Position numbers and translations under genes: made by a program. The notes under the pieces are model-generated. The model saw only the letters and a list, made by a program, of their open reading frames with translations, was not told the DNA's origin and ran no database searches. Positions 2,833 through 11,431 of a stretch of DNA of 23,392 bases are shown in pieces (the stretch's first letter is position 1; every line of letters starts with the position of its first letter). Source of the DNA: a virus; the UHGV virus genome UHGV-1348655; one strand, written 5' to 3'.

Positions 2833-3051
2833 ATGTACTTGACACTTCAGGAGTGGAACGCACGCCAGCGACGCCCAAGAAGCCTTGAAACAGTTCGTCG
2901 ATGGGTACGCGAGTGCAGGATATTCCCTCCTCCGGTTAAGGATGGAAGAGAGTATCTGTTCCACGAATCAGCGGTAAAGGTTGACTTAAATCGACCAGTA
3001 ACAGGTAGCCTTTTGAAGAGGATCAGAAATGGGAAGAAGGCGAAGTCATGA
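2833..3051 (+). CDS. xis: Excisionase Xis, lambda type, 72 aa
   Basis: Sequence MYLTLQEWNARQRRPRSLETVRRWVRECRIFPPPVKDGREYLFHESAVKVDL matches lambda Xis; overlaps the int start as in lambda. Confidence 0.9.
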   Translation: MYLTLQEWNARQRRPRSLETVRRWVRECRIFPPPVKDGREYLFHESAVKVDLNRPVTGSLLKRIRNGKKAKS

Positions 3052-4099
3052 GCGCCGGGATTTACCCCCTAACCTTTATATAAGAAACAATGGATATTAC
3101 TGCTACAGGGACCAAAGGACGGGTAAAGAGTTTGGATTAGGCAGAGACAGGCGAATCGCAATCACTGAAGCCATACAGGCCAACATTGAGTTATTTTCAG
3201 GACACAAACACAAGCCTCTGACAGCGAGAATCAACAGTGATAATTCCGTTACGTTACATTCATGGCTTGATCGCTACGAAAAAATCCTGGCCAGCAGAGG
3301 AATCAAGCAGAAGACACTCATAAATTACATGAGCAAAATTAAAGCAATAAGGAGGGGTCTGCCTGATGCTCCACTTGAAGACATCACCACAAAAGAAATT
3401 GCGGCAATGCTCAATGGATACATAGACGAGGGCAAGGCGGCATCAGCCAAGTTAATCAGATCAACACTGAGCGATGCATTCCGAGAGGCTATAGCTGAAG
3501 GCCATATAACAACAAACCCGGTCGCAGCCACTCGCGCTGCAAAATCAGAGGTAAGGAGATCAAGACTTACGGCTGACGAATACCTGAAAATTTATCAAGC
3601 AGCAGAATCATCACCATGTTGGCTTAGACTTGCAATGGAACTGGCTGTTGTTACCGGGCAGCGAGTTGGTGATTTATGCGAAATGAAGTGGTCTGATATC
3701 GTAGATGGATATCTTTATGTCGAGCAAAGCAAAACAGGCGTAAAAATTGCCATCCCAACAGCATTGCATGTTGATGCTCTCGGAATATCAATGAAGGAAA
3801 CACTTGATAAATGCAAAGAGATTCTTGGCGGAGAAACCATAATTGCATCTACTCGTCGCGAACCGCTTTCATCCGGCACAGTATCAAGGTATTTTATGCG
3901 CGCACGAAAAGCATCAGGTCTTTCCTTCGAAGGGGATCCGCCTACCTTTCACGAGTTGCGCAGTTTGTCTGCAAGACTCTATGAGAAGCAGATAAGCGAT
4001 AAGTTTGCTCAACATCTTCTCGGGCATAAGTCGGACACCATGGCATCACAGTATCGTGATGACAGAGGCAGGGAGTGGGACAAAATTGAAATCAAATAA
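3029..4099 (+). CDS. int: Tyrosine integrase Int, lambda type, 356 aa
   Basis: Near-identical to lambda Int from MGRRRSHERRDLPPNLYIRNNGYYCYRD to the C-terminal catalytic region (HELRSLSARLY ... LLGHKSDTMASQY). Confidence 0.95.
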   Translation: MGRRRSHERRDLPPNLYIRNNGYYCYRDQRTGKEFGLGRDRRIAITEAIQANIELFSGHKHKPLTARINSDNSVTLHSWLDRYEKILASRGIKQKTLINYMSKIKAIRRGLPDAPLEDITTKEIAAMLNGYIDEGKAASAKLIRSTLSDAFREAIAEGHITTNPVAATRAAKSEVRRSRLTADEYLKIYQAAESSPCWLRLAMELAVVTGQRVGDLCEMKWSDIVDGYLYVEQSKTGVKIAIPTALHVDALGISMKETLDKCKEILGGETIIASTRREPLSSGTVSRYFMRARKASGLSFEGDPPTFHELRSLSARLYEKQISDKFAQHLLGHKSDTMASQYRDDRGREWDKIEIK

Positions 4100-4739: not shown

Positions 4740-6197
4740 TTATTGCATGATATCTTTTGAAGACAACCCGTTTACAATTGGATTATATTGATAAAGCTTT
4801 TTGTCATATGACATTATCATTGGGTTATCATTTTCTTTAGAAAAAATATCATAGTTATCTATTGTTAAATTTGTCTTGACACCAATCCATGAAGCAAAAA
4901 AGTCAATAAAATGCTTGGCGCTTCTAGTTGTATCTGCCATTGTTGTTTCTTTGTCATCGCTAGAGGCAACAAAAAATGGAACTTGGTATGATTGTTTTTT
5001 TGATGCATCTCTTCTTACCTTATAACCATTGCCATCTTTAATCATATTTAATCCATGATCTGAAAAATACACCATGGAAAATGATTCACCAGAATCCTCA
5101 AGATATGTATATATATCCTTAATGAAATCATCTGTTTTGTTGTAAGTTGAAAGGTAGCAATTAACAACCCTGCCACTTTTTGTTTTATATTTTATTGGAT
5201 AATCAAACAATCGATCGCAAGGATATTCATGAGATCCAACAATATGAACAAATATAACTTTTCTTTCTTTTAGTTTTATCTTCTCTTTTATTACTGGAAG
5301 CAATCCGAAGTCATCAGCCTTGTTAAAATATTTAAATTTCGCATAGTTAGATATTCTGCTTGATGCAATATTATACTGCCCTGAATAACCTTGTGATGAT
5401 ATCCAAAAAGTATTAAGTCCAGCCATGTTTGCTAGCTCAACAATGTTGTCCTGCTCATAAACAGAACCATTATCACTTGTTTTAGACAGTATTCTTGGTA
5501 CGGCTAGAGTTGTGTTTATTGCTGTAGTTATATAATTACTAATGTATCTCTTGGGGATTGAGTCTATAAACGGTGTCGTATCTAAACTAAACCCATATAG
5601 CGACATGAAATCCTTTCTCATGGACTCACCAATAACAACAACATATGTATTATACTTTGGTGTAATCTTATTTTTTATCAACCAAGAACTTGCAGGAAGA
5701 TTATCTACCTGTAGGCTTTTATATTCCTTAATGATATCTGAAACCAACCCACCGAATATCATAAAGTAGCATGAAGATGTAATTAGTAGCAATGGGGTTA
5801 ATGTTATTAAAATTAATTTTCTTCTTATTTTTTTCTGTTCATAATTGAATGCATATATGATCGTGAAAACAAAAAGAAAAACTGAACAGACCATTATTAT
5901 TAAGTGCGTTGTTGGGATTGACATATGGAACTGTATTGTCTCGCTTATGTCTGTAGCAAGAAGTACGTCCAATAGTGACGGCTTTAATAGTCCTTTTGTT
6001 AGAATTGCATCTGGAATCAATACGCTAAGTAATATTCCAAAAATTAGCAATATAGTTCTTGGTATTTTAAACAAAGATAAAGAAAATAAAGTTATAAACG
6101 ATAGAAATAAAATTGATATATTTATGCTGCCAATTGCTATATATTGCATCAAATATGATAGCACAAAACTACATATTGCTATTAATAACAACTTCAC
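4740..6197 (-). CDS. Inner-membrane sulfatase-superfamily enzyme, phosphoethanolamine-transferase-like (EptA/MCR/YhbX-type), 485 aa
   Basis: GTG start at 6197 with AGAGGA 8 nt upstream. About five hydrophobic helices in the first ~160 residues, then a soluble domain with motifs VVVIGESMRKD, VHIVGSHEYP and YFSDHG that resemble the metal and nucleophile motifs of that family. The gene is visibly much more AT-rich than the phage backbone. Confidence 0.8.
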   Translation of the reverse strand: MKLLLIAICSFVLSYLMQYIAIGSINISILFLSFITLFSLSLFKIPRTILLIFGILLSVLIPDAILTKGLLKPSLLDVLLATDISETIQFHMSIPTTHLIIMVCSVFLFVFTIIYAFNYEQKKIRRKLILITLTPLLLITSSCYFMIFGGLVSDIIKEYKSLQVDNLPASSWLIKNKITPKYNTYVVVIGESMRKDFMSLYGFSLDTTPFIDSIPKRYISNYITTAINTTLAVPRILSKTSDNGSVYEQDNIVELANMAGLNTFWISSQGYSGQYNIASSRISNYAKFKYFNKADDFGLLPVIKEKIKLKERKVIFVHIVGSHEYPCDRLFDYPIKYKTKSGRVVNCYLSTYNKTDDFIKDIYTYLEDSGESFSMVYFSDHGLNMIKDGNGYKVRRDASKKQSYQVPFFVASSDDKETTMADTTRSAKHFIDFFASWIGVKTNLTIDNYDIFSKENDNPMIMSYDKKLYQYNPIVNGLSSKDIMQ

Positions 6198-6402: not shown

Positions 6403-6678
6403 GTGGCTTCTGTTTCTATCAGCTGTCCCTCCTGTTCAGCTACTGACGGGGTGGTGCGTAACGGCAAAAGCACCGCCGGACATCAGCGCTATCTCTGCTC
6501 TCACTGCCGTAAAACATGGCAACTGCAGTTCACTTACACCGCTTCTCAACCCGGTACGCACCAGAAAATCATTGATATGGCCATGAATGGCGTTGGATGC
6601 CGGGCAACAGCCCGCATTATGGGCGTTGGCCTCAACACGATTTTACGTCACTTAAAAAACTCAGGCCGCAGTCGGTAA
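6403..6678 (+). CDS. insA: IS1 InsA, 91 aa
   Basis: [43 protein letters not shown] is the canonical InsA sequence. Confidence 0.95.
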
Positions 6679-7100
6679 CCTCGCGCATACAGCCTGGCAG
6701 TGACGTCATCGTCTGCGCGGAAATGGACGAACAGTGGGGCTATGTCGGGGCTAAATCGCGCCAGCGCTGGCTGTTTTACGCGTATGACAGGCTACGGAAG
6801 ACGGTTGTTGCGCACGTATTCGGTGAACGCACTATGGCGACGCTGGGGCGTCTTATGAGCCTGCTGTCACCCTTTGACGTGGTGATATGGATGACGGATG
6901 GCTGGCCGCTTTATGAATCACGCCTGAAGGGAGAACTGCACGTTATCAGCAAGCGATATACGCAGCGCATTGAGCGGCATAACCTGAATCTGAGGCAACA
7001 TCTGGCAAGGCTGGGCAGGAAGTCACTGTCGTTCTCAAAATCGGTGGAGCTGCATGACAAAGTCATCGGGCATTATCCGAACATAAAACACTATCAGTAA
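6597..7100 (+). CDS. insB: IS1 InsB frame (transposase is made as InsAB' by a -1 frameshift)
   Basis: Canonical InsB reading frame overlapping the insA 3' end; the A-run frameshift site lies in the overlap. Confidence 0.9.
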
Positions 7101-7127: not shown

Positions 7128-8948
7128 CTATTTTATTGACAGAACGCCAGATAAGGATATTTGTCTAGCAGAGCCAGATGATACATCTGTCCATCTGGCA
7201 TATCTTGTTGTTCCGTCGATGAAAGTTAATAAAAATTTAGCCGTGTTATCTGACACCACCTCTAAGGAAACATCATATAATTGTTTAGCTGAGTTTGCTG
7301 TAGCGTAGTAAAATGCGTACAGGCCACCATTAACTGTACCTCCAAATCCAGATTTAATGCCATAAACAGGAGCTATATTAACAATTACATCACCTGTTGC
7401 TGACGGTATAGCTGTTACTGTTGTAGCTATGGAAAAACTTAATGTGTTATACCATATTCCAGAGTTCAGAGTTTGGCCCGACATCGTTACACCAGCAGCA
7501 CTTGCAAGGACAGCTCCAGAGTTAGGTCCAATGGTCATTCCTGTACGCATTTTTTCAGCATATCCGTAGCCCGAGAAGTGATTACGAGCTATACCGGAAG
7601 CGCCTTCGAAAGATACCCAAAGATCTGTAGCATAATCGGGATTACTTACGCTAAAGTTATGGAATGAAGAACCCTGTGACGTGGTTATCATAGGTAACGT
7701 ACTTTTTCGAGGTGTGTCATTTTTAGACGCGGCAATAAGTACATCCGTAAAACTGGTATCCCACGCATCACAAATAAGCCCCACCCCACCGTTACTTCTA
7801 GACGGAACACTACCAGTGTTGCGCCTAACTGGAGTATCTAGGATTAAGTTAGAATACGAGGTGAAACCACCATTCTCAGTAACCCATAGCCCTACGTGCA
7901 TTTTCCCCATGACACCGACTAAATTATCTACGGTATTACCCCAAGGATGGAACTTATCTAAAGAGTTACCGGATTTAATAACCTTACCACCGTATGCGTA
8001 ACCAACTGGTGAAATCTCTGAATACCAGCCGTCCGTACATTTAATATGTAGGCCGATTGACTGGTCGGCTCGCGTATTTGCCACTACCATAGTGAATTTA
8101 GACGCTTTACCTTCGTAGCAAAATTCGTCCTCAAAACCGCCGTTGTTGAACCCAATTATTGCGCCGCCTTCGTATGTGTATCCGTAGCAATGTTGCACCC
8201 TAACGCCGATAGCGTTAATTCCTACCGTGTAATCCTGCGCCTCTAAACGCAAGCCGTAACAGTTAGTTTTGTTAGCTAGCGTAAAATGATCGGAGTTGTC
8301 GTAAGATGGGGTATCGGCACCACCATCCATTATATACGCATATGTTGAACTCAAACCGGCAGGAACAATTGCACGATGATTATTCCAGTAAACAGTAACC
8401 CCAGGCTTATGCATGATAGGAATTGTACTAAAAATGATGTCTTCATTCACATAAAGAACGCCGCCGCCACTTTCTGATATCTCAGTCATAGCTGCGTTAA
8501 ATGCATCTTCTCCTATTCCCCATCCGCGAAGGTCGCCTTCATCTTTCCATTTTTGTATAAGGGATGGAATAAGAAAATAGCCATCAGGTCCAGCAAGAAC
8601 CTGTCTTAGTTGGTCAGGGTCATACTTCAGCACATTCGGAAAATTAAACTGCTGCGCACCGTACGCATCATACACAGCCATAGAATGTCCTTGCACAGTA
8701 ACGAACTTGGCAATCTGTCCGTTATATACCGGATATCCAGCAGCGTTAATGATGATTGGTTGCGAAACAGGAACGTGAGAACCGTCTTCGTTCTCCACAT
8801 AAACCTGAATCTGGTTTTCAGGATTTACAGGGTCAGTGTCAATTTTACCGATATAAATTTTGCCATTGGCTACGGCTTTAAAAGAACGCGCCATAGTGAA
8901 GAGTTGCGAAGGCATCGATACGATCACATTGGCTGTAATGTCTGTCAT
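7128..8948 (-). CDS. Tailspike protein, 606 aa: P22-type N-terminal head-binding domain plus a divergent receptor-binding domain
   Basis: The N-terminus [46 protein letters not shown] ... VLKYDPDQ matches the P22/Sf6 tailspike head-binding domain; the remainder is unrelated to P22 gp9. GGAG lies 8 nt upstream of the ATG. Confidence 0.85.
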
Positions 8949-9080
8949 TTAATTTGCTCCAGATACAATGAATCGCCGCAGCGTGGCCACGGTTGGTATT
9001 TGTTGCATACCGAAACGGTACGATTGTTGATTTGTACAGTAGGTTTTACGATGCCATTCCACCCATTTGGTGAGGCATTG

Positions 9081-9344
9081 ATGATGTACAGCAAATACGA
9101 TGAGGCGCAGTTCCACTTGAGGCTTACGCACGAGTTGCACGCTAAGATTAAGCAGCGTGCAAAAATGAATAACAGGTCGCTGAACTCAGAGATAATTGCA
9201 GCGATTGAAGAATCATTGGATAAACAAAGCTCTGCATCAGTTTACATTGACGATGCAGAGCGTATGGCAGAACAACAATCCGATATGGTAAAGAAAATTG
9301 TCTTTGATACGCTCAAAGAGCTATATAAAAAAGACAGCAGCTAA
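9081..9344 (+). CDS. mnt: Mnt-like ribbon-helix-helix repressor, 87 aa
   Basis: The track ORF 8610..9344 is over-extended; the real start is ATG 9081 with GGTGAGG upstream. The C-terminus ERMAEQQSDMVKKIVFDTLKELYKK matches P22 Mnt (ERLADEQSELVKKMVFDTLKDLYKK as I recall it). It is transcribed divergently from the late operon, as in P22 immI. Confidence 0.75.
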   Translation: MMYSKYDEAQFHLRLTHELHAKIKQRAKMNNRSLNSEIIAAIEESLDKQSSASVYIDDAERMAEQQSDMVKKIVFDTLKELYKKDSS

Positions 9345-9364
9345 CTATCAGTTACGGAGGATTT

Positions 9365-9442
9365 ATGCAAAGAGATATGCTGAATATTGCGTTCTACATA
9401 TTTGGTTTTTGCACGTTCCTGGTGTTTGCGAAGCTATTCTGA
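9365..9442 (+). CDS. Candidate 25-aa hydrophobic micro-protein (MQRDMLNIAFYIFGFCTFLVFAKLF)
   Basis: ATG 9365 preceded by GGAGG (9356-9360) with a 4-nt spacer; a single predicted transmembrane helix; its 3' end overlaps the ejection-protein gene on the other strand. Confidence 0.25.
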   Translation: MQRDMLNIAFYIFGFCTFLVFAKLF

Positions 9443-11431
9443 CAACGCATCAGACTTGGCACCTTGAGTCAGGGCGTTAATGGCCTTTTGCGCCTGCTGC
9501 ATGGCTTTCTCAAACGCTGTTGATCCGCGTGGGGTGTTTGCCATTCGGAGCATTGCATTTCTGAATGGCTCGCTCTCATAGGCGCGAGTAAGAAGTCCGT
9601 AGCTTACCGCTGCGGCAGTTGTCGCCGGGTTCATTGCCGTTCCATACCCGATAATGAACGGGATGGTTTGCTGCCCTGTTGGTGTTGTTACTGCCGCTTT
9701 TGCAGCCTGCTGCGTGGATTGCAGGTAGTTTTTCAATCCTTTCAGATAAGCGGCTTCCTGACCTTTAAATGTGATGCCAGTCTGGTTTTGCAGGATGTTA
9801 AGCTGTCGAAGGAACTGGTCAGGGGAACCACCTGATTTCTCCATCGCCTTTCCAATGATGCCATTGCGCATTTGCGCCCTGCCAACACGACCAACTGAGT
9901 TATACAGAGTCTTAATTTCCGATTTGTTCTTGCTGAATAGCATGTTGTTGACAACTTCCGGCGTCAGATCGCCTTTCATGAGAACATTCTTCAGCCTGGT
10001 ATTCTTTAGTTTCGCCGCTTCGTCAGCGTATACGGCATTGGCCTGCTGATATTTACGGAGAGTATCGTTGCCAAGATTCTGACCAATGGCACCATTGATA
10101 TCGTCTGTCATCGCCTTGTAAACGCGATGAATGGCAGCATCGGAACGGTTTGGTAACACTGGTCGCTCACCCTTCACGTCCATTCTGAACTGGCTGCGAA
10201 GGTCGCTTAATTGCTTCAAATCCAGATTTACCGGACCATCAGGACCAGCATTGCGAACAAGCTCATCACGATAGGACTGAAGTTTTGAAATAGTCTCGTT
10301 ATCGGCGACCTTACCAAGCTTCTGCAGGTTAGATATTTCTGTATCAATCTGCTGAATTGCTCGAGCAGGCTGGATATTGACTCCCGCCATTGCATTCTGA
10401 ACCTGCTCAAGACGGTTCCCTGCAGCACGACGAATTCCTGATGTTTTCGCTTTAAGGCTGTCAATAACAACAGCTGGATCATACTCACCGAATTTATCAG
10501 CAAATCTCTGCACCAACTGGCTTCTCGCTTCCTGTTGCGTTGCTCTCATTCCGCTTGTGCCAGCCAGGGGGATATTTTCTGCTGTCGTTTGCGCCATTTT
10601 TCCGACGCGGGAAGTTGGTTGTAACAGGTCTGTGGTGTGCAGAGGAACTCCTTCACGCTCTGCAAACCTGATAGCCTGTTGAGCTTCTGGTGCTATCGAA
10701 CCACGAACACCACGATAAGCAGCACCTAATCCACGTCCGGCAGCGTTAATAGCACCGCCAGCCAGCACACCAACGCCTAAATCGGTGGCGAGTGCTTCCG
10801 CATCATCTTTCGCACTGTTTGCAGCAAGTGATCCAACTGCGTTTTCTGCTAGAAGGCGAGTTGCCCCATGAGCAATTCGACCAGCAAGTGTTGGTGCCTG
10901 TGTTGCCGCTCTCTCAACGCCAGCAGGAGTGAGGTAAGGCAATGCTTCAGCAAATACCCTTCCCTCTGTCGTTTGTGGAGTCAGCGCGCCTTGCCGAAGG
11001 CCAAAGTCCTGCTCTAATCCCTGCGTTGTTACTCGTGGCGCTGGTTGATATGTACCATCGCCAATGCCGAGTTTACCGCCAGCCCAAGCCGCCGCGCTTG
11101 TTACAGCATCTGCAACTGATGCAGGTATGTTTGCCACGTTCACGCCAGCCTGCACCAGTCCGCGACCAGTCTCTTTCACTGCTTCACCAAGATCAGACAT
11201 AAATCCACTTTGCTGTGGTTGTTGCTGTGCTACTGGTTGCTGTGTATCCACTGGCTGCACAGATGGCAATGGATAGGCAGCATAGAAAGCTTGCTTAGCC
11301 TGCTCTGCATTTTCTCCGGCTTGCGGGGCCACGACTTCATTGAAGTATTGCTCCTGAGCCTGCGCTTTTTGTTCTGGTGCTAACGCCTGATACTGTGGAG
11401 AGGCGATAACATCTTTCCATGCTTTAGCCAT
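9434..11431 (-). CDS. Ejection protein, P22 gp16-like, 665 aa
   Basis: Last large gene of the late operon before the tailspike; size and order match P22 gp16 / Sf6 gp13; Ala/Gly/Gln-rich low-complexity composition. Confidence 0.75.
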   Translation of the reverse strand: MAKAWKDVIASPQYQALAPEQKAQAQEQYFNEVVAPQAGENAEQAKQAFYAAYPLPSVQPVDTQQPVAQQQPQQSGFMSDLGEAVKETGRGLVQAGVNVANIPASVADAVTSAAAWAGGKLGIGDGTYQPAPRVTTQGLEQDFGLRQGALTPQTTEGRVFAEALPYLTPAGVERAATQAPTLAGRIAHGATRLLAENAVGSLAANSAKDDAEALATDLGVGVLAGGAINAAGRGLGAAYRGVRGSIAPEAQQAIRFAEREGVPLHTTDLLQPTSRVGKMAQTTAENIPLAGTSGMRATQQEARSQLVQRFADKFGEYDPAVVIDSLKAKTSGIRRAAGNRLEQVQNAMAGVNIQPARAIQQIDTEISNLQKLGKVADNETISKLQSYRDELVRNAGPDGPVNLDLKQLSDLRSQFRMDVKGERPVLPNRSDAAIHRVYKAMTDDINGAIGQNLGNDTLRKYQQANAVYADEAAKLKNTRLKNVLMKGDLTPEVVNNMLFSKNKSEIKTLYNSVGRVGRAQMRNGIIGKAMEKSGGSPDQFLRQLNILQNQTGITFKGQEAAYLKGLKNYLQSTQQAAKAAVTTPTGQQTIPFIIGYGTAMNPATTAAAVSYGLLTRAYESEPFRNAMLRMANTPRGSTAFEKAMQQAQKAINALTQGAKSDALSE

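Follow-up and report, generated by a model that had tools for sequence, protein, structure and literature searches.

In phage P22, Mnt is encoded within immI (mnt-Omnt/Pant/Pmnt-arc-sar-ant), a region lying between genes 16 and 9, and the mnt gene is oriented antisense to the late operon. This slot was named the "ant moron" by Villafane et al. (PMC2629481), according to whom ST64T, ST104 and Para1 carry only mnt and one unknown gene there (PMC2629481). The mnt-only layout has also been described in phage L (bioRxiv 10.1101/2020.10.05.325894); that is to say, the layout is already published and is not new. In ST64T, ST104, L and ST160/SE1 of Salmonella, and in Gally of E. coli, mnt stands directly beside the tailspike gene without arc or ant, and in morons of this type the operator and the mnt promoter are kept while Pant is degraded. 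For the Mnt specificity class of E. coli and Shigella, no discussion was found in the literature searched, and the papers on Sf101 and Kapi1 are silent on the gene.

The DNA considered here (the window, the whole stretch of 23,392 nucleotides of UHGV-1348655) is part of a P22-like (Lederbergvirus) prophage, the features of which are collected in Table 1. Its gene order, gp16-like gene, small ORF, mnt and tailspike, is that of the mnt-only ant moron of Villafane et al. 2008, and we regard it as probable that the ant-moron slot here houses a self-contained Mnt cassette that is functional, regulates itself and has no antirepressor target in cis. The gap between tailspike and mnt is 132 bp (8949-9080), and on the 3′ side of mnt the minus strand carries homologues of P22 genes 16, 20 and 7, followed by the remaining virion genes. 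A tblastn search of the window gave no homologue of arc or ant, either in the gap separating mnt from the tailspike or elsewhere, P22 Ant having no match in the window and Arc none on its late strand; Sf101, a close relative with a complete genome, likewise has no annotated antirepressor. Unlike P22 immI, then, the window has no arc divergent from mnt, no sar, no ant gene and no strong divergent Pant overlapping the operator. The first-pass annotation had placed mnt divergent from and directly against the tailspike, with neither arc nor ant between them, in the region that immI occupies in P22, and both points are borne out.

Table 1. Features of the Mnt cassette and its neighbours (positions in the window).
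Feature	Position	Strand	Basis
Tailspike gene, 606 aa, P22-type N-terminal head-binding domain	7128..8948	-	ORF list; PF09008, E 2.6e-65
Tailspike 5′ leader / "boundary sequence", holding GTGGCCAC (8983-8990) and the GGTAT arm (8995-8999), neither conserved	8949..9002	.	Match to P22 gene 9 leader
Predicted Mnt operator TACCGAAACGGTA, centre 9014	9008..9020	.	Conservation, geometry, covariation, single copy
Predicted mnt promoter, -35 TTGTTG (9024-9029), 17-bp spacer, -10 TACGAT (9047-9052)	9024..9052	+	Homology to P22 Pmnt, conservation
mnt homologue	9081..9344	+	Pfam, PDB 1MNT and 1QEY, protein alignment, pN/pS
Small ORF, 25-aa hydrophobic peptide MQRDMLNIAFYIFGFCTFLVFAKLF, SD GGAGGA (9356-9361)	9365..9442	+	Intact in 81/139 non-redundant relatives
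P22 gene 16-like ejection protein gene	9434..11431	-	ORF list; homologues annotated gene 16 / DNA transfer protein

The gene 16-like gene is the last late gene ahead of the mnt cassette. The scan of 8800-9600 found no terminator-like site from this gene to the tailspike, for which expression by late-operon read-through over the cassette is therefore to be presumed, as in P22; late transcription reaching the tailspike would cross mnt in antisense.

The plus-strand ORF adjoining the tailspike starts at one of two in-frame ATGs, 9081 or 9084 (the start in relatives corresponds to 9084), and encodes 86/87 aa behind the SD sequence GAGG at 9072-9075. Its product matches the Pfam families Arc (PF03869, 7.6e-13, residues 8-50) and Repressor_Mnt (PF11423, 3.4e-14, residues 58-83), as well as PDB 1MNT, the solved N-terminal domain (E 6.9e-18, residues 6-79), and 1QEY, the tetramerisation domain (1.6e-8). 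It is 47.5% identical to P22 Mnt, and R13, N29, R31, S32, N34 and E36 are invariant in the Mnt protein alignment. Judged by these matches, the ORF is a true Mnt homologue, as had been annotated, with an N-terminal ribbon-helix-helix (RHH, Arc-like) DNA-binding domain and a C-terminal coiled-coil tetramerisation domain; family and two-domain build are those of P22 Mnt, and the C-terminal helix is nearly identical in the two proteins. A cognate dyad operator just 5′ of its own promoter, another trait of the family, is predicted by comparison alone. Several RefSeq phage records (NC_002371, P22 mnt; NC_027398, Sf101 gp14; NC_011976; and others) label Mnt as "partition protein ATPase", which for an RHH repressor of 83-97 aa is an evident annotation error.

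The operator in question is the dyad at 9008-9020. Its core, TACC-N-AAA-N-GGTA, is conserved in Escherichia coli, Escherichia sp., Buttiauxella, Citrobacter and Serratia, with the family consensus (R)TACC-N-AAA-N-GGTA(C) and a perfect form, GTACCAAAATGGTAC, in Buttiauxella; a scan of genome contigs gave five loci, which are useful for conservation across genera and too few for statistics. In P22, the annotated Omnt AGGTCCACCGTGGACCT, an experimental annotation, is centred 10 bp ahead of the first T of the Pmnt -35 (TTGAGA-17-TATCAT). The centre of the window dyad is likewise 10 bp ahead of TTGTTG, an offset that is equal in P22, Gally and L/ST160; both the window and P22 have one dyad operator in the same geometry relative to the promoter of the gene itself. 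The half-sites differ, TACC-N5-GGTA in the window against GGTCCAC-C-GTGGACC in P22, as do the recognition residues (Q9/H11/R13 against H6/N8/R10), and operator sequence and the beta-strand residues that read the DNA change together, falling into three classes: P22 and epsilon34 (strand DDPHFNFRM, operator GGTCCACCGTGGACC), Gally, ST160 and L (DDPQFNLRL, AGACCACNGTGGTCT), and the window (DEAQFHLRL, TACCNAAANGGTA), hereafter class C. The site is single-copy in the window and in the complete Sf101 genome; second copies were found neither there nor in the relatives bearing ant, sporadic TACC-N5-GGTA being within coding sequence or one-off. On the basis of the conserved core, the 10-bp offset, the covariation and the uniqueness, 9008-9020 is very probably the Mnt operator, and this candidate of the first-pass annotation is thereby strengthened.

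The exact 16-mer CATACCGAAACGGTAC is also found in phages of an unrelated family whose structural genes are HK97-like, where it stands twice, 515 bp apart (L102, 7579-7594 and 8094-8109; similarly in about 15 other IMG/VR contigs), each copy just past a TATATA box and about 20 nt ahead of a small gene. There is no Mnt near these pairs and no match to them in the phage or E. coli collections, and they were set aside as Mnt sites, the likeness probably being coincidence. Another match (L155) was rejected for lying inside a coding region.

Two further dyads in the 132-bp gap had been proposed as operators together with this one. All three are present, namely GTGGCCAC at 8983-8990 (one base off the coordinates first given, and within CGTGGCCACG, 8982-8991), GGTAT..ATACC at 8995-9011, and TACCGaaaCGGTA at 9008-9020. 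With arms of at least 5 bp and gaps of at most 7, these three compare with 0.81 +/- 0.88 in dinucleotide shuffles, 4.7% of which had three or more, and one 8-bp palindrome arises by chance in 43% of shuffles, i.e., it is fully expected. Across relatives only the dyad at 9008-9020 is kept. The other two lie in the tailspike leader: positions 8949-8993 match the P22 gene 9 leader (L003 1059-1103) at 88.9%, P22 having ATGGCTACGGTGAA where the window has GTGGCCACGGTTGG, and at the GTGGCCAC site P22 and nearly every relative that has this leader read ATGGCTAC, GTGGCTAC or GTAGCTAC. The GGTAT arm varies freely (GGTGT, GGCAT, AGCAT, GATGT). Moreover, a mosaic joint lies at about 9003. In the most numerous group of relatives, to which IME10, Sf101 and E. 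coli W belong, homology begins there and everything left of the joint is replaced by unrelated sequence; everything to the right is conserved, beginning with (G)CATACCGAAAYGGTAC.

In view of this leader homology, variation and replacement, GTGGCCAC and GGTAT..ATACC are best regarded as incidental features of a tailspike-leader module and were rejected as operators. The proposed likeness of GTGGCCAC to the core of P22 Omnt also falls away: the 7-mer CCACGGT is present in Omnt, on the other strand, but the position of GTGGCCAC is homologous to the gene 9 leader, and the palindrome is a variant specific to the window. P22 (L003) has the boundary sequence GTGGCTACGGTGAATTTT at two places (1087-1108 and 1200-1220), on either side of a segment of about 110 bp that lies between gene 9 and the ant terminator; in the window the motif is present as the variant GTGGCCACGG. 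The RNA of the late-strand leader was also considered as an element and was rejected, its fold being no better than that of shuffles (z = -1.33); a small hairpin in it would be broken by the commonest operator allele.

As for the promoter of mnt, the predicted hexamers are the positional homologue of P22 Pmnt, and the start of transcription is predicted near 9059. Both hexamers are conserved across four genera, whereas the spacer and flanks vary. In a sigma-70 consensus scan, for which P22 Pant (11/12) and Pmnt (10/12) served as the positive control, the predicted promoter matches the consensus at 7/12 positions, under the scan threshold, and in the commonest allele the spacer is just 15 bp. 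The predicted promoter is thus weak by consensus, and its assignment rests on positional homology and conservation across genera. Toward the tailspike, the same scan found no promoter in 8800-9600 (minus strand); the corresponding scans of E. coli W and phage L were negative as well. The equivalents of the Pant -35 and -10 in the window, ATGGCA and TACAAA, are separated by only 14 bp, and elsewhere they are degraded as well (TCGGCA-17-TATATC in L; TGCATC in Gally), that is, the leftward Pant promoter is decayed in the window. A rightward promoter-like site at 8942-8969 was rejected; it does not exceed chance and is not kept in relatives, of which most have TACAAG there.

Sequence comparison among alleles showed that mnt has a pN/pS of 0.14 (55 distinct alleles) and that its ORF is intact in all except a few of 86 alleles; between the window and E. 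coli W there are 13 synonymous and three non-synonymous differences. Given this ratio, the gene is under purifying selection and is not a dead remnant. The segment 8949-9344 was matched in 356 of 5,426 complete E. coli genomes and also in phages IME10, Sf101 and ECO26.1. In IME10, Sf101, E. coli W and many E. coli prophages, Mnt is 96-98% identical in amino acids to that of the window, and operator core, small ORF and neighbours are the same, but to the left of their operator the tailspike leader is of unrelated sequence, 118 bp separate tailspike and mnt as against 132 bp, the operator is the imperfect TACCGAAATGGTA, and the promoter has a spacer of 15 bp, not 17 bp. Morons of ST64T, ST104, L, ST160/SE1 and Gally have the promoter-proximal GATGCCnnTCCAC in common with the window; however, those of the ST64T/L/Gally type belong to the other specificity class (PQFNLRL strand, AGACCACNGTGGTCT), and their downstream cargo is orf62 on the opposite strand with bidirectional terminators.

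The cassette is closely linked to the tailspike. Among the IMG/VR loci fetched with the window Mnt protein, the tailspike start lies just upstream of mnt in all 80 that include the upstream flank, and by the operator 16-mer this was so in 88 of 90 loci among the matches listed. The distance from tailspike start to operator in IMG/VR loci is 45-57 bp; from the tailspike ATG to the 16-mer it is 45 bp, 57 bp, or more than 570 bp where an HNH endonuclease gene is inserted, such insertions or too short a contig accounting for the exceptions to adjacency. HNH/AP2-type homing endonuclease genes of this kind lie between tailspike start and operator in two IMG/VR contigs (L017 3327-3869, L022 3330-3869), with gaps of 651 and 725 bp, and likewise in phage Kapi1.

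On the far side of mnt the cargo varies. Of 139 non-redundant loci, 81 share the window layout (mnt followed by the small ORF and gene 16), 22 carry different cargo, and 23 (about 17%) have antirepressor-like genes (P22-like Ant, BRO-N, KilA) convergent with mnt. In some of these antirepressor-bearing relatives there is a second Arc/Mnt pair, and one Ant (that of L121) is 85% identical to P22 Ant. Two IMG/VR loci (L121 and L113) carry a full second module beyond the tailspike-proximal mnt, convergent with the class-C mnt and composed of Mnt-like gene(s), an Arc-like gene, and Ant or BRO plus KilA. In N-terminal DNA-binding domain, operator, promoter and tailspike adjacency the window resembles the ant morons of JEP4, E. 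coli HS-1, Citrobacter, Serratia and CUS-3-like phages; these differ from it in having another C-terminal half with a bidirectional terminator at its end, and P22 Ant-like, BRO-N and KilA genes, sometimes with a second Mnt/Arc pair, convergent beyond mnt. Purifying selection, conservation of operator and promoter across genera, and coexistence with distal arc/ant-like modules mean that the mnt cassette behaves as an independent, maintained, tailspike-linked module.

When about 9003-9215 is compared with JEP4 (L004), E. coli HS (L009), L094 and L095, Mnt is seen to be a mosaic at the level of domains. In JEP4/HS-type mnt, operator, promoter and the N-terminal RHH domain are common to both, and the C-terminal half is unrelated and ends in the bidirectional terminator AAAAAACCCGCGATTAAGCGGGTTT; recombination thus swaps oligomerisation domains while DNA specificity is kept.

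The small ORF behind mnt ends with a stop codon that overlaps the stop of gene 16. Several of its variants differ synonymously only, it is intact in Sf6 (L219 503-577, without mnt), Gally and 720R6, and it is unannotated in all records examined. It is probably co-transcribed with mnt and may be a small membrane protein expressed by the prophage.

In the self-contained cassette proposed above, the parts would be the operator, the weak sigma-70 promoter directly to its right, mnt, and the co-oriented ORF of the 25-aa membrane peptide. A Mnt tetramer would occupy the single predicted operator, with one RHH dimer on each TACC/GGTA arm, and the promoter-proximal arm would be centred near -41 of the mnt promoter, a position that suggests autoregulation. 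Mnt would thereby set the level of its own prophage-expressed transcript of mnt and small ORF, antisense to the late operon, while the tailspike would be transcribed by read-through across the cassette; with arc, ant and a usable Pant all absent, there would be no antirepressor to control in cis. We infer that Mnt binds this site, that the direction of autoregulation is either repression or activation, that mnt and the small ORF share a transcript, and that the cassette confers a selective benefit. As regards direction, Vershon et al. reportedly found in 1987 (J Mol Biol) that P22 Mnt does not repress Pmnt and that its stimulation of this promoter is solely indirect, Pmnt being relieved of competition from Pant when Mnt shuts the latter, and the operator-promoter geometry of the window equals that of P22. 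Autoregulation alone is a thin reason for such strong conservation of the operator, and a target in trans may exist.

Such a target is the substance of the main alternative, possible though unlikely, which is compatible with autoregulation: Mnt would repress the antirepressor promoters, provided with the same operator, of superinfecting or co-resident P22-like phages, so that the prophage would be shielded from induction by foreign Ant. P22 Mnt, which plays this immunity role toward homo-immune immI phages (PMC2629481, PMC11016777), is the precedent, and both the purifying selection on a gene with no cis target and the relatives that combine the same DNA-binding domain with Ant, BRO or KilA genes in their morons are consistent with it; a family link to antirepressor control is possible, given the 23 loci with antirepressor-like genes beyond mnt. 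However, an exact search of IMG/VR with the 16-mer gave at least about 130 matches, and among the matches listed about 90 were upstream of class-C mnt, the rest were in coding or unrelated sequence, and no TACC-N5-GGTA preceded an ant, arc or BRO gene; in the relatives bearing ant, moreover, the sole operator is on the wrong side of mnt. The reuse of Mnt on the tailspike, through a tailspike-proximal promoter or as a roadblock to late read-through, had been suggested by the first-pass annotation and is improbable. The cassette is always immediately beside the tailspike start, whatever adjoins its other side, and the operator is 60 bp upstream of the tailspike ATG (1.4 kb in P22), in the path of late transcription; an influence of Mnt/Arc on gene 9 read-through was also speculated on by Villafane et al. 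(PMC2629481). Nevertheless, the scan whose positive control worked on P22 detected nothing like a sigma-70 promoter directed at the tailspike, the hexamers of Pant are degraded and wrongly spaced, the leader RNA has no unusual structure, and the operator keeps its position relative to the mnt promoter and not to the tailspike ATG, from which it varies between 45, 57 and more than 570 bp. The suggestion is therefore unsupported.

It is very improbable that an immI lost arc and ant here and that the locus is its functionless, decaying remnant, although slot and gene order are indeed those of P22 immI minus arc and ant, the Pant hexamers are degraded, and the authors of the phage L genome raised the possibility for their own mnt-like gene (bioRxiv 10.1101/2020.10.05.325894). 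An ORF intact in nearly all alleles, the low pN/pS, operator and promoter hexamers conserved from Escherichia to Serratia, and coexistence with complete distal arc/ant modules in some phages speak against it, and selection and conservation together largely refute a dead remnant. Thus the earlier idea of a deleted immI was at best half right: the slot and order agree with it, while purifying selection, conservation across genera and the presence of arc/ant-like genes beside the cassette in about one-sixth of loci do not. A toxin-antitoxin-like pair, with the RHH protein as autoregulating antitoxin and the hydrophobic peptide as membrane toxin, is scarcely credible. It would agree with an RHH gene followed by a small hydrophobic ORF with a strong SD, and with weak Pfam matches to HicB and FitA-like RHH antitoxin domains, but the C-terminal half consists of the Mnt tetramerisation helix (1QEY) and not of a toxin-binding tail, and each gene is found without the other (mnt alone in JEP4, RM6927 and Buttiauxella; the small ORF alone in Sf6), so that there is no obligate pairing and this reading was rejected.

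If the self-contained autoregulating cassette is taken as the working model, what it adds is a testable prediction of operator and promoter for the Mnt class that dominates the P22-like prophages of E. coli and Shigella, three matched pairs of recognition strand and operator as a natural specificity series for ribbon-helix-helix DNA recognition, and stand-alone Mnt genes maintained by selection. It also sharpens the question posed by the genome papers on phages L and epsilon34, namely the role of Mnt without an antirepressor. The significance is modest, for the protein family is known and the layout is published; a specificity class is added. A bolder proposal, which we hold to be distinctly doubtful, is that the tailspike-linked Mnt cassette is an independent device, for example a prophage repressor that acts in trans on relatives with the same operator. 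If this were true, it would mean cross-immunity to foreign antirepressors or a roadblock on the tailspike expression of an invader, and the three classes of operator and recognition residues would be diversifying immunity specificities.

The left part of the window contains the early-left genes, the integrase (3029-4099), a sulfatase-family gene and IS1, and then the tailspike. IS1 occupies 6403-7100 on the plus strand (InsA 6403-6678, InsB 6597-7100); its end is 28 bp away from the stop codon of the tailspike gene (7128). The sulfatase-family gene (PF00884, 485 aa, 4740-6197, minus strand) lies between the integrase and IS1; since O-antigen acyltransferases occupy its slot in relatives, it may be a surface-modification gene of the phosphoethanolamine-transferase type.
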